From Bacteriovoracia bacterium (GTDB lineage: Bacteria > Bdellovibrionota > Bacteriovoracia > Bacteriovoracales > Bacteriovoracaceae): DNA of 64,000 bases. The notes beneath the pieces are model-generated. The model searched no databases, was not told where the DNA came from, and worked only from the letters and a program-made list of their open reading frames with translations. The stretch is from NCBI GenBank assembly GCA_046570105.1, contig JBKHVI010000003.1, positions 48,807 to 112,806 of the forward strand. The letters run 5' to 3'. The position numbers and the translations under genes are program-made. Below are positions 25,780 through 29,806 of the stretch, in pieces; within the stretch, counting starts at the first letter, position 1, and each line of letters begins with the position of its first letter.

Positions 25780-26985
25780 TTACTGACAGAAACCGGTTTT
25801 GGTACCGGCAGTGATTCTTTCTTTTTGCATCCAAATACAAGCTTTATCCGTCTGGAACACGCTATCAGGATAACATTCCTTAGGCTTGGTCGTTCCTTTC
25901 AGTGAGCTATAGTTTTGTTCGCAAACGCGATAGCTCGCTCCATCCACACAGGCCCAATGTTTACCGCGACAGTTATAAACAAGACCGCGCCCGAAGTTTT
26001 CATATTCAGGTGGTTCAATATAGGCCGCCCCAGTGGCAGGTACACTGTCTTTTTTATCCTGAATTTGCTTCTCTAAATCTTTCAAGATCTGTTCAGTCAT
26101 ATCTGGATTGTCAGTCGCAGGTTGCCCATCAGTCACTTGATCTGTTCCTGAAGCTTCTTCTCCACCCACTTTCGGCTCAGTATTCTCTGGCGGAATTAAA
26201 TCTGGTGCCGGCTCGACAAAATTATCTGGAGCGGTGGCTTCGATAGGAGCCGAGTCTTCAGAAATCGGCGTCTCATCTCCAATCGGTTCAACAGGGATAT
26301 CCACACTCTCCACTGGAGGTGGGACTTGTTCTGGTGGAGCGTCTACCACCGGCTCAACTGGCGGAGGAGGAGTATCAGTAGGTGCAGCAACTGTCGGCTC
26401 AGTTGGAGGTGTCACAGCTGGATCAACCGGTGCCGGTTCTACTGGCGCGGTATCAACTGGTGCCGCTACAACAGGATCAGTGGGTGCTGTAGGATCAACC
26501 GGAGCCGCTCCTTCTGCTGGTGGAGCTGCATCTGGTGAAGCGGAAGCAGCCTCCCCCGGAGGAGGACGTTTTTTCTTATTTTTCTTCACTGGTGGATCAA
26601 CCGGAAGCTCTTCAGCGACCTCAGTGGGTTCTTCTGTTGGATTCAAATAATCGTAAGCAAAATAAAGTGCGCCCAAGACCAATGCAATACGAATTATTTT
26701 TTGGCGCTGATCATTTGCGCCGGGCGCTTTCACTCCAATATCCGTCTTATCACCAGACGATGCAGCTTTGGCTGAAGGCTTGTTGAGAACTTTTGCTAAG
26801 AACGGTAACTGTTTAGCGAGAGCTTGTTTCCATTTTGGCTGATCTGCTTCAGCAAGCTCATCAACTTCTTCTATGCCTGTTGAATCTTCATCAGAAGAAA
26901 CTTCTTCCGATTCTTCAACTTCTTCATCAGTTTCTTCTTCATTATTTTTGGCAGAACGAGACAAGAAAGGAATCTTTCCCTTCAA
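25780..26985 (-). CDS. Single-pass membrane protein with Pro-rich linker and Cys-rich C-terminal domain
   Basis: Acidic N-terminus, TM IALVLGALYFAY, PVDP/PVEP repeats, C-terminal domain with six Cys; true start may be 27018. Confidence 0.8.
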   Translation of the reverse strand: MKGKIPFLSRSAKNNEEETDEEVEESEEVSSDEDSTGIEEVDELAEADQPKWKQALAKQLPFLAKVLNKPSAKAASSGDKTDIGVKAPGANDQRQKIIRIALVLGALYFAYDYLNPTEEPTEVAEELPVDPPVKKNKKKRPPPGEAASASPDAAPPAEGAAPVDPTAPTDPVVAAPVDTAPVEPAPVDPAVTPPTEPTVAAPTDTPPPPVEPVVDAPPEQVPPPVESVDIPVEPIGDETPISEDSAPIEATAPDNFVEPAPDLIPPENTEPKVGGEEASGTDQVTDGQPATDNPDMTEQILKDLEKQIQDKKDSVPATGAAYIEPPEYENFGRGLVYNCRGKHWACVDGASYRVCEQNYSSLKGTTKPKECYPDSVFQTDKACIWMQKERITAGTKTGFCQ

Positions 26986-27081
26986 TTGTTCAAGCTGCTC
27001 TTTGAGTTTATCGATGATAACTCACCCCAAGTTTGCTCTTTCTTATTATATCACCTAGACTTAAGTATAAGGGAGGATGTC

Positions 27082-27777
27082 ATGATGCTCAATGCAAACG
27101 CGTCTTTAGATGTCCTTCACCCCCCAATAATTAATGCTGAAAAGGCGATTCCTGTGATGGACGATGGGGTCACCAAGTTCAAACTTACCCTAAAAAGGGC
27201 CCCGGCCCCCCAGGCCACTGAGGTCATTCCCCTCGAGAAATGGCGTGCTATCCTCTGGCGATTACGTATGGTCGGTGAGTATCCGAATGAAAAGATCGGT
27301 TACGGAAATCTCTCAGTGAGGCTGCCCCTATCTAAAGGTGGATTTTTGATTACCGGGACCCAGACCGGCAACAAACCCCATCTTCGACGGGAACATTATG
27401 CCCGGGTCGTGGGTTGTGACCCACAAAAAAATATCGTCAAAGCCGAAGGTGCCATTGGCCCTTCGAGCGAGAGCCTTACTCATTTTGCAATCTATGAATC
27501 TAATCCGCAGATTGGCGCGATCTTTCATATTCATCACCAAGTTATTTGGCAAAAAATGATCGATCAGAAAGCTGAATCAATTGATGAAACAATAGCCTAC
27601 GGCACGAAAGAAATGGCGGAAGCAGCTCGCGAAACCATTCAAGGTAAAGAACAAGGCGTGTTTGTGATGAAGGGCCATCAAGACGGCATCATTGCCTATG
27701 GTGCCAACCCTGAAGCGGCTGGAAAAATTCTACTTAAACTCTATCGCGAGCTGGGGCCACAAGGGGAAGTGCTTTAA
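27082..27777 (+). CDS. Class II aldolase/adducin family protein
   Basis: GNLSVR, FLITGT, PSSESLTH, AIFHIH, GHQDG; start at 27082 or 27157 (MDDGV). Confidence 0.85.
   Translation: MMLNANASLDVLHPPIINAEKAIPVMDDGVTKFKLTLKRAPAPQATEVIPLEKWRAILWRLRMVGEYPNEKIGYGNLSVRLPLSKGGFLITGTQTGNKPHLRREHYARVVGCDPQKNIVKAEGAIGPSSESLTHFAIYESNPQIGAIFHIHHQVIWQKMIDQKAESIDETIAYGTKEMAEAARETIQGKEQGVFVMKGHQDGIIAYGANPEAAGKILLKLYRELGPQGEVL
27766..27774. repeat. Target-site duplication, left copy (GAAGTGCTT)
   Basis: Identical to 28816-28824 and abuts the IS terminus. Confidence 0.9.
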
Positions 27778-28815
27778 ACTGCCCCCTTATAATGGTGTTA
27801 ACTCAGGGGGCAGTAGCCTCTGATTATAAAACCACGCGAAAATTTCCAAATGGTCTTTTAGCCTATCTACTCTTTTAGTTGTATTCCATGTTTTACGTAT
27901 CAATCGACTTACATTTGCACGCAACATAGCGCATGAATGGTTCACCGTGAAGATCGGATCAAAGCCTCCTTTTTTTAGTTCACCTTGTCCTGCCACTGTT
28001 GCACGTTCACTTTTGTAAGTTAGATGTTTCGCCTGTGGCAGATGCTTTCTAATCACAGCACCATAGCGCTGATGTTCATCACTTTTTATCACTGCGTGTG
28101 AATGTATGAACGGCGCCATTTCCTTGAACATTCGTTCAAGAGAATCCGGATGCTCATCTGCTCGCTTACCATATTTTTTTACCGCTAATTTCGCTAAATG
28201 CCCAAATGCTGGAATTCTTGCAACCTCTAACGCCAGAATTCTCCTTGTTCCACTTTCAACCATCATCGTCACCGCCAGCGGCTTAAGCTTGGAGTTTTCT
28301 TTCGTGATCAAATCATCAAGCTGCACTTCTCTAATGGTACCTCGCCTTCTTTCGCAGTAACGACGATTTAGGCGTCCATATTTTTTGCCAAGAAACGCCA
28401 GCTTGCGCTCAACAGTCTTACGGTTCACGCGCAAGATCCAGGCACTTCGCCGCAAAGACACATTCGACGAAAGAAGCTTTGCTAGAGGTGAGTTGATTCG
28501 CCGCTTTTTCTGTCGATAAGTAGGTGTATTTGTCGCGAGAGAAAAGCGCGCCCCACATGAACGACAGCGAAGCCGTTGGATGAGTTTGCTATCCTCCTGT
28601 CGTTTGAAATATCCATCGCGAATGATATTTCCAGGGCAACCGTTGAGATGATTAGGACATGTGTATTTCATGCCAAGTTAGTTGCAAGAAGTTGGGTAAA
28701 TTTTTGAAAGTTAATCTCTTGAAATTAAAAGGTTCGTTTCTCAACATCTGGAGAAAATTTCCATCAAAATGGAAAAAAACTCCCACAGGCAACACCACTC
28801 AAGTCGGGCAGTTTA
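27775..28815 (-). mobile_element. IS1-like insertion sequence (1041 bp)
   Basis: Terminal inverted repeats TAAACTGCCC (10/10 identical, 19/25 over 25 nt); flanked by a perfect 9-bp direct repeat; single transposase ORF. Confidence 0.9.
27787..28671 (-). CDS. IS1/IS1595-like transposase (Zn ribbon, HTH and catalytic domain in one frame)
   Basis: CPNHLNGC...RLRCRSC zinc ribbon; SLRRSAWILRVNRKTV HTH; VQLDD, IKSDE and VNHSCAMLRANVSRLIRKT...TK core. Confidence 0.85.
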   Translation of the reverse strand: MKYTCPNHLNGCPGNIIRDGYFKRQEDSKLIQRLRCRSCGARFSLATNTPTYRQKKRRINSPLAKLLSSNVSLRRSAWILRVNRKTVERKLAFLGKKYGRLNRRYCERRRGTIREVQLDDLITKENSKLKPLAVTMMVESGTRRILALEVARIPAFGHLAKLAVKKYGKRADEHPDSLERMFKEMAPFIHSHAVIKSDEHQRYGAVIRKHLPQAKHLTYKSERATVAGQGELKKGGFDPIFTVNHSCAMLRANVSRLIRKTWNTTKRVDRLKDHLEIFAWFYNQRLLPPELTPL

Positions 28816-29806
28816 GAAGTGCTTTAAGAAAGTCCGCCTCTCTCTTCTGCAATTCCTCAATATTTGATCCCGTAACAAAATACCAAACGAACATATTATC
28901 TTCTGGAGATAACAGACGGGCAGATGAAGATTGACTCACTCTCATCCAATCTTCACTTTTTAAAACACAGGGATGCATCGCCAGCTTAAAAAACTGAGTT
29001 TTTTCTTTTTTCCATAGCTGGTAAGCGAGCCAGCCCATGGTTTTGCGTGGATTCATTTCAGAGCCGGGATGAAAAACTCGCTGGCCATCTTTCATATAGA
29101 AAAAAGCATCGACACTAAAAGAACCCTGATAACCACGGGCAAAAATATCTTTTTGCAAATCGCTTAAATTTTCACTCCAGCTACCAGTCCCCTCAGGCAC
29201 CTTATTAAAGGTAGCCGAATTAAGTATTGAGCCTCGCCACTGAAAACGTTGATCAATGATATTTTGATAATAAATATAGCGAGATTCCTCAGCTATCCAC
29301 AAGGCACTCACATCTGCAACGCGATCATAGAGTGGCTCAACCACAACGGGTGTCTTCCAATCAAGACGCGAAACAGCAGTTAAATCATCACGCTTTATTT
29401 TGATGTGCCCGCGGCCCGACATCCCATCACTCTTCTTAATGAGATACCACCCCTCGCCTATCGCTTTCTCAAGCATCTGAGGACTCTCACAAACTGCGGC
29501 TTCTAAGGGCCAGCGCTTGAGCCACCATTTAAGAAACTCAGTCTTACTACTTAACTCACGCATGAGAGAAAGATTCGCAGTCTCTCCCCACCAATCTATG
29601 GCGGCATCATTTTTAGTGATTTCAATTTTATGATCAGTGAGAGCAGAGACATATTCCAGATAGCGCGAAGAATAGTCACGATGGACTAGCACTCGCTCAT
29701 GGGTGACCCAAAAAGCAAAAAATTCGAGTGTAGCGATCAGATGAGGACGGGGTGGTTTGCCGCTTAAGACTTCTTCAAAATCGACATTGAATCTAAGACT
29801 CGGCAT
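28799..29806 (-). CDS. ATP-grasp-like protein (C-terminus supplied by the IS)
   Basis: IKKSDGMSGRG, VVVEP, GSFSVDAF, EMNPR (ExNxR). Confidence 0.65.
   Translation of the reverse strand: MPSLRFNVDFEEVLSGKPPRPHLIATLEFFAFWVTHERVLVHRDYSSRYLEYVSALTDHKIEITKNDAAIDWWGETANLSLMRELSSKTEFLKWWLKRWPLEAAVCESPQMLEKAIGEGWYLIKKSDGMSGRGHIKIKRDDLTAVSRLDWKTPVVVEPLYDRVADVSALWIAEESRYIYYQNIIDQRFQWRGSILNSATFNKVPEGTGSWSENLSDLQKDIFARGYQGSFSVDAFFYMKDGQRVFHPGSEMNPRKTMGWLAYQLWKKEKTQFFKLAMHPCVLKSEDWMRVSQSSSARLLSPEDNMFVWYFVTGSNIEELQKREADFLKALLNCPT
28816..28824. repeat. Target-site duplication, right copy (GAAGTGCTT)
   Basis: Identical to 27766-27774. Confidence 0.9.

Follow-up and report, generated by a model that had tools for sequence, protein, structure and literature searches.

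A recently inserted 1041-bp element in a Bacteriovoracia genome and a probable D-D-N branch of the IS1 family

In a stretch of 64,000 nucleotides from a Bacteriovoracia bacterium (GenBank assembly GCA_046570105.1, contig JBKHVI010000003.1, positions 48,807–112,806; the whole stretch is termed here the window), a 9-bp sequence is found twice, and between its copies lie 1041 bp that carry a gene for a 294-amino acid (aa) transposase. This raises the question of whether the segment is an insertion sequence (IS) that has moved as a unit, and to which family it belongs, as its transposase has Asn at the position of the catalytic Glu of IS1. The analyses make it quite likely that this is an intact and recently transposed IS with a D-D-N transposase, and that it represents a large branch of IS1 for which none of the sources or curated libraries consulted has a name. 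The group is a distinct D-D-N clade of the IS1 kind and not a new kind of mobile element. The parts of the element are as follows, with positions those of the window and the minus strand that of the transposase.

27766–27774, no strand: left 9-bp target-site duplication, GAAGTGCTT, which is single-copy in the empty site of the same-genus genome G007
27775–28815, minus strand: complete insertion sequence of 1041 bp, enclosed by the duplication and the inverted repeats
27775–27808, minus strand: right inverted repeat (IRR), at the 3′ end of the gene; it contains the last codons (LTPL) and the stop, and its tip is 12 nt past the stop
27787–28671, minus strand: transposase gene, 294 aa, a single open reading frame (ORF)
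28782–28815, minus strand: left inverted repeat (IRL), upstream of the transposase gene, TA-AACTGCCC-GACTTGAG-TGGTGTT, with its tip 144 nt before the ATG
28816–28824, no strand: right 9-bp target-site duplication, GAAGTGCTT, seen in the window sequence and by the repeat finder

Evidence for transposition comes from the insertion site. The full exact direct repeat detected by the repeat finder is 12 bp in length (GAAGTGCTTTAA), since the start of the element and the continuation of the target both read TAA; the ends are symmetrical only if the repeat is read as 9 bp. A duplication of 11 or 12 bp with asymmetric ends was also considered and rejected, as the extra bases match only here and in one other locus (L017) of the ten with perfect duplications. 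The region and its flanks were searched against 40 related genomes. An uninterrupted site, ...GGGGAAGTGCTTTAAGAAA..., is found in the same-genus genome G007, where the two flank matches overlap by precisely the 12 shared bases, and there is no room for a 1-kb insert in any of the eight same-genus genomes that have both flanks on one contig (G001, G002, G004, G005, G006, G007, G008 and G010). Thus a real insertion took place and was accompanied by a 9-bp target duplication. The 1041-bp element is intact, mobile and recently inserted. A preliminary description, made from the window alone, had placed the 9-bp duplication at these positions around 1041 bp and held that the element had really transposed, and it had proposed that either an empty site in a relative or other copies with different duplications would be informative. 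Both were found, and 9-bp duplications of differing sequence recur throughout the family.

The two ends of the element form inverted arms (27775–27808 and 28782–28815) that are 34 nt in length and 71% complementary, as determined with the repeat finder. The outermost 25 nt are identical at 19 positions, in agreement with the earlier count, and consist of TAAACTGCCC, a segment with two of eight positions alike, and TGGTGTT. For a survey of ends, 63 family copies were examined and 43 were kept in which both ends are present with 20 nt or more of flank; in 17 of the 20 left out both ends were not found, and in three the flanks were too short. The 43 copies give the consensus nn-AACTGCC-N8/9-TGGTGTT. 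A perfect 9/9 duplication is situated exactly 2 nt outside the AACTG core in 10 of them (W1, L017, L020, L023, L025, L027, L028, L033, L050 and L058), with an 8/9 match in one more copy and a 7/9 match in another, and no copy reaches 8/9 at the control offsets of 0, 1, 3, 4 and 5. The ten perfect duplications are all unlike in sequence. This establishes where the tips lie and that the stagger is 9 bp for the family. IS1-family elements make target duplications of 8–9 bp, and a size of about 1 kb together with a 9-bp duplication is common to the elements described here and IS1.

The two outermost base pairs of the element vary across the family (ta, ga, ag, ca, aa, gt, gc and others), and at the 3′ terminus each of the four bases is represented in the set of ten validated copies. 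Copies that are 97–99% identical and reside at different sites share identical tips; thus the tips travel with the element, and the notion that tip bases are copied from donor flanks can be dismissed on the same grounds. The TAAAC termini of the preliminary description therefore hold in part: the AACTGCC portion is conserved family-wide, but the TA that precedes it is particular to this copy. Its statement that the ends do not start with 5′-GG agrees with the family end nn-AACTGCC, which differs from the E. coli IS1A ends GGTAATG and GGTGATG, both of which start with GGT. Two small observations concern the ends. L023 and L028, which are present in one complete chromosome, are 95.2% identical and have perfect duplications, but one tip differs at both bases (TA/CT), a hint of faster change in the tips than in the remainder of the element. 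In addition, an end of E. coli IS1A (L098, 1225–1264) and window positions 28791–28815 both contain CTGCC followed by TGGTGTT, with wider spacing in IS1A; these common words could be due to chance or could represent a shared binding motif.

Additional copies are found in the same genome. The second copy, on another contig (L002, G000 contig 11), aligns over positions 2–1040 of the 1041 with 76% identity and has an intact 294-aa frame; when the two intact copies are compared, their DNA identity is 77.5%. For these two closest copies the nonsynonymous divergence (dN) is 0.080, the synonymous divergence (dS) is saturated, and dN/dS is 0.033, which indicates that selection has maintained the transposase protein. 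A third, more diverged copy of about 1089 bp has a 291-aa frame (L095, 1258–2347; G000 contig 38). At about positions 2497–2584 of L002 the upstream end is tandemly duplicated, as two identical units of ~43 bp that each end in ...AAGGCAGTTTT, and these account for the three end-motif matches of the second copy. A further genome shows three staggered partial copies of the terminal 13–14 nt (AACTGCC...) in tandem, also at the upstream end (L037, about 650–700); thus tandem duplication of an end recurs. In L095, an upstream gene for an OmpR-type response regulator takes its final three codons and its stop from the end of the element.

When one genome per species was scanned, 80 family loci were obtained, most of which are in Bacteriovoracaceae, Halobacteriovoraceae and other Bdellovibrionota. 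Distant relatives, with 33–49% identity, are present in Bdellovibrionaceae, Pseudobdellovibrionaceae, Granulosicoccaceae, Marinamargulisbacteria and Fibrobacteria assemblies. Among 1.84 billion representatives, a search with the family profile detects 1748 clusters (50% identity) at E<=1e-3, 984 at E<=1e-10 and 362 at E<=1e-30, and the 1748-cluster family is found mostly in Bdellovibrionota. The family is common in predatory bacteria and their relatives. The plasmids of PLSDB gave no tblastn match.

The transposase consists of a zinc ribbon (C5, C12, C36 and C39), a helix-turn-helix (HTH) at about residues 57–108 and an RNase H-like catalytic domain at about residues 113–286. Conservation was determined with 87 diverse members that are 31–51% identical to the window transposase. 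All of them have C36 and C39, 84 of the 87 have C5 and 80 have C12. D119, D198, N244 and R251, the last of these seven residues after the Asn, are invariant in all 87, and the Asn and Arg are kept in 25/25 further ORFs from a phylum sample in which this region is present. Position 120 is either D or E. The motifs QLDD, KSDE and VNH had been proposed to form a D-D-N triad. They do align with the D, D and E of IS1, but the invariant first Asp is D119 and not D120.

Structural modelling with AlphaFold and the 87-sequence alignment gives a predicted local distance difference test (pLDDT) value of 93.8 and a predicted template modelling (pTM) score of 0.90. The model has strands at 113–124, 131–139, 145–152 and 189–197 and a helix at 241–253, and the elements follow the order beta1-beta2-beta3-alpha-beta4. 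D119 is in strand 113–124, D198 comes right after strand 189–197, and N244 is in the first turn of helix 241–253. Both the predicted fold and the placement of the catalytic residues are those of the RNase H-like superfamily. Foldseek matches are integrases and transposases, eight of them at E<=1e-3, and the best PDB structures are retroviral integrases (Rous sarcoma virus, RSV, 5ejk) and the ISCth4 (6xg8), Mos1 (4u7b), Mu (1bcm) and Hermes transposases. The model and these solved DDE enzymes are alike in catalytic fold and in the three active-site placements, a likeness at the level of fold only, with 8–15% identity. The PDB matches listed contain no IS1-family entry. A sequence search of the PDB returned only a multicystatin match, which was discarded as spurious.

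With E. coli sequences alone, the relationship to IS1 is seen in the N-terminal region. When compared with the 87-member profile, E. coli InsAB′ gives an hhalign probability of 95.7% (E 9.9e-9, residues 5–98), and InsA had given 84% with an earlier family alignment. Thus the zinc ribbon and HTH of the family, which the preliminary description had recognized, are homologous to InsA. A single-sequence comparison with the catalytic region of E. coli InsB was dropped, as hhalign gave 3.6% with the first Asp mis-paired and HMMER aligned only the N-terminus and a short helix. Since the E. coli IS1 proteins are too distant in the catalytic domain, a diverse IS1 alignment was built. Its seed is a true IS1 protein from the same phylum (L099; 171.7 bits, with one frame of 243 aa, which NCBI annotates as an IS1 family transposase), and it contains 17 sequences, among them E. 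coli IS1A and IS1B. In this set D107, E108, D163 and E188 are invariant and R195 is nearly so. The 87 members and the 17 IS1 proteins align with an hhalign probability of 99.4% (E 2.7e-21, 221 columns), and the profiles pair D119 with D107, D198 with D163, N244 with E188 and R251 with R195. With the single true IS1 as partner the probability is 98.3%. The L099 locus is a short contig from another genome of the phylum, where two adjacent canonical IS1-family genes are found (59–777 and 891–1622); of these, one is divided between two overlapping frames and the second is the single 243-aa frame.

The family keeps the order and spacing of the IS1 catalytic residues, including the Arg at +7, and by whole-length homology the element appears to belong to the IS1 lineage and to share the IS1 mode, as was proposed originally. 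Four usual IS1 features are nevertheless missing, i.e. the Glu, the GG ends, the frameshift and scores above the curated thresholds. Every member examined has Asn in place of the catalytic Glu. There are also two extra insertions of ~17 residues in the catalytic domain relative to IS1, and E231 is inside one of them. The family has a single frame without a −1 frameshift, unlike the insA/insB arrangement that PMC12428005 describes for E. coli IS1. The frameshift is not universal in IS1, however, as the true IS1 of L099 with its one frame demonstrates.

Two competing readings concern this placement and the standing of the group as unnamed. In one of these the element is a member of the IS1595 family, from a subgroup with Asn for Glu, and not of IS1. 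Some IS1595 subgroups are said to have Asn or His in place of the Glu, and hhalign does detect ten true IS1595 proteins with a probability of 92.9% over 152 columns. IS1595 elements as described in PMC8101967 likewise have a single ORF, a zinc finger at the N-terminus and an RNase H-type domain, but the duplication given there is usually 8 bp, whereas it is 9 bp in all ten perfect family cases. The alignment to IS1595 ends after the second Asp and has a score of 56, compared with 148 for family and IS1 and 83 for IS1 and IS1595; thus the family is a divergent sister of IS1 proper and not an IS1595 subgroup. The IS1595 model NF033547 matches one of the 87 members (E 7.9e-4) and the IS1 model NF033558 matches 84 (E<=1e-3, best 9.2e-18), and in the ESM-Atlas the nearest named clusters with a Pfam family, among those listed, are all PF03400 (DDE_Tnp_IS1), the IS1 catalytic domain. 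The IS1016-type element ISApl4 has the start GGGGCTG, and the IS1016-type motif is D-D-E (PMC12561309); the family ends do not begin with GG. An IS1595 origin is thus quite improbable, and the element is nearer to IS1 than to IS1595. The other reading is that of an ordinary catalogued element, of the IS1 family or unclassified (ISNCY), that may have a close relative in ISfinder and offers nothing new. It is of classical kind, with inverted repeats, a 9-bp duplication, and a zinc ribbon, HTH and RNase H fold, and some members are already labelled ‘transposase-like protein’ in JGI sources. Yet NCBI records call the family proteins ‘hypothetical’, including those of a complete Peredibacter chromosome, and the window protein falls in a 962-member ‘hypothetical’ cluster of the ESM-Atlas. 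No transposase catalytic-domain family of Pfam was found for the window protein, 37 close members or the 87 diverse members (25 of the 29 families matched by the 87 being listed), and PF03400 was not among the Pfam matches listed. With NF033558 the window protein scores 36 bits against a cut-off of 100 bits; all 37 close members also match this model, and all scores listed are below the cut-off. In a phylum sample of 301 genomes the IS1 model has a match at E<=1e-10 in 45 and one above the cut-off in only two, and the window genome's own copies (about 1e-8) fall outside the count of 45. Of the below-cut-off scores listed, none is higher than 94.7 bits, and ORFs tested as family members reach at most 72.4 bits; 27 of 28 ORFs from below-cut-off loci match the family profile at E<=5.5e-55. 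A full-text literature search with IS1/IS1595 subgroup names and Bacteriovorax insertion sequences found no description of the group. We consider the catalogued-element reading unlikely, and the earlier suggestion of a poorly described subgroup is in keeping with the fact that no curated model of Pfam or NCBIfam names it. Where the transposase is annotated as hypothetical, mobile DNA is under-counted in such genomes, and a curated model would mend this gap.

Several points weigh against the view that this is a recently moved element from an unnamed D-D-N branch of IS1, and they bear also on two further alternatives. The term ‘unnamed’ reflects Pfam, NCBIfam, the names given in sources and the literature search, and an ISfinder entry may exist. 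E. coli IS1 alone aligns confidently over the N-terminal region only, and the alignment of the catalytic domain needs the diverse IS1 set. The second and third copies of this genome have no target duplication, and in 31 of the 43 complete copies at most six of nine duplication positions match, so many copies are old or rearranged. Catalysis by Asn is suggested by its position and invariance. Two acidic residues just before helix 241–253, D238 (acidic in 86/87) and E231 (in 80/87, and within the insertion absent from IS1), might in the model act as substitute carboxylates. If so, the enzyme would still be functionally D-D-(D/E), with a relocated carboxylate that completes the metal site and with Asn244 in a structural or DNA-contact role. 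This is doubtful, as neither acidic residue is invariant and N244 is, in 87/87, and N244 keeps exactly the spacing to the invariant Arg that the IS1 Glu has. It can also be asked whether the repeats arose by chance and the gene is an immobile relative of transposases that has been domesticated. The exact end motif is present only five times in the genome, in every case at one of the two closest copies, and the three diverged copies each occur singly. However, the empty site in relatives already refutes this, and both the ten independent copies with different 9-bp duplications and the multiple near-identical copies within several genomes speak for mobility, so that domestication is hardly conceivable. 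With the D-D-N view retained as the favoured one, the family offers a natural and demonstrably mobile test case of an RNase H-type transposase that would work without the third carboxylate, and would be a second occurrence, on the IS1 side, of the Glu-to-Asn change that is reportedly found in IS1595 groups.

A mechanism can be outlined by homology with InsA of IS1. The 294-aa protein would bind both end blocks (AACTGCC at positions 3–9 and TGGTGTT at about 19–25) by means of the zinc ribbon and HTH; in IS1 these bind the inverted repeats and a C-terminal domain catalyses, according to PMC12428005. The RNase H-like domain, by a presumed chemistry, would cut 2 nt outside the AACTG core, and the ends would be joined to target DNA whose two strands are cut 9 bp apart. 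Of this step the duplication and its position are observed. Asn244 takes the place in the helix that the catalytic Glu has in IS1, seven residues before the invariant Arg, and presumably helps to hold the metal ions in place of the carboxylate. The mode of transposition might be either replicative or conservative.

The choice of target was analysed by computational removal of the element and one duplication copy from the ten validated loci. In eight of the ten restored sites the 9-bp target is 0–6 nt from the point where a frame of 100 aa or more has its stop codon, in many cases between convergent genes, and in the other two it is 44 nt and 479 nt away. An inward-facing long frame ends no more than 19 nt from the boundary in 36 of the 43 copies (on both sides in 13), compared with 5.2% of control positions, but the count of 36 is inflated because the element ends themselves contain stops in some frames. 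The ten targets show a loose fit to nAA-N3-TTn. The proximity to stop codons could result from targeting of such regions or from survival of insertions that do no harm, and these data do not distinguish the two. A preference for gene 3′ ends, if true, would represent a low-damage insertion strategy. A bolder and tentative proposal, which we regard as possible but not as the probable case, is that this is a very abundant and distinct D-D-N lineage of the IS1 family that is efficient with Asn, that measures its cut from the internal block and so leaves the two tip pairs free, and that is directed to stop-codon regions by the weakly palindromic nAA-N3-TTn, and not by mere survival.

The 3′ end of the transposase mRNA shows a potential secondary structure. 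A scan for promoter and terminator consensus sequences gave results at chance level. In the two closest copies, a GC-rich stem of 9–10 bp is followed by UUU, and the second copy (L002, about 1503–1540) has the same stem with z −3.3. In the window the structure is:

27778–27814, minus strand: predicted hairpin in which the end core ACTGCCCCCT pairs with its complement AGGGGGCAGT, 10-bp stem, −23.5 kcal/mol, z −3.9

The element was inserted where two convergent genes overlap at their 3′ ends:

26986–27777, plus strand: class II aldolase-like gene (PF00596, E 2.7e-14)
28799–29806, minus strand: convergent gene of 335 aa, no Pfam match

The aldolase-like protein is unchanged, because the first three bases of the element give an in-frame stop, TAA. 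In the 335-aa gene the last five codons and the stop (LNCPT*) are now derived from the element. The protein ends in ...FLKALLNCPT*, and its relative in G007 ends in ...FLKALPLVAPARDRA*; thus the last 10 residues have been replaced by five that the element encodes. Elsewhere in the window, at 25780–26985 on the minus strand, is a 401-aa frame with a long Pro/Ala/Val-rich low-complexity middle (repeated PVDP/APV) and a C-terminal part that contains Cys.

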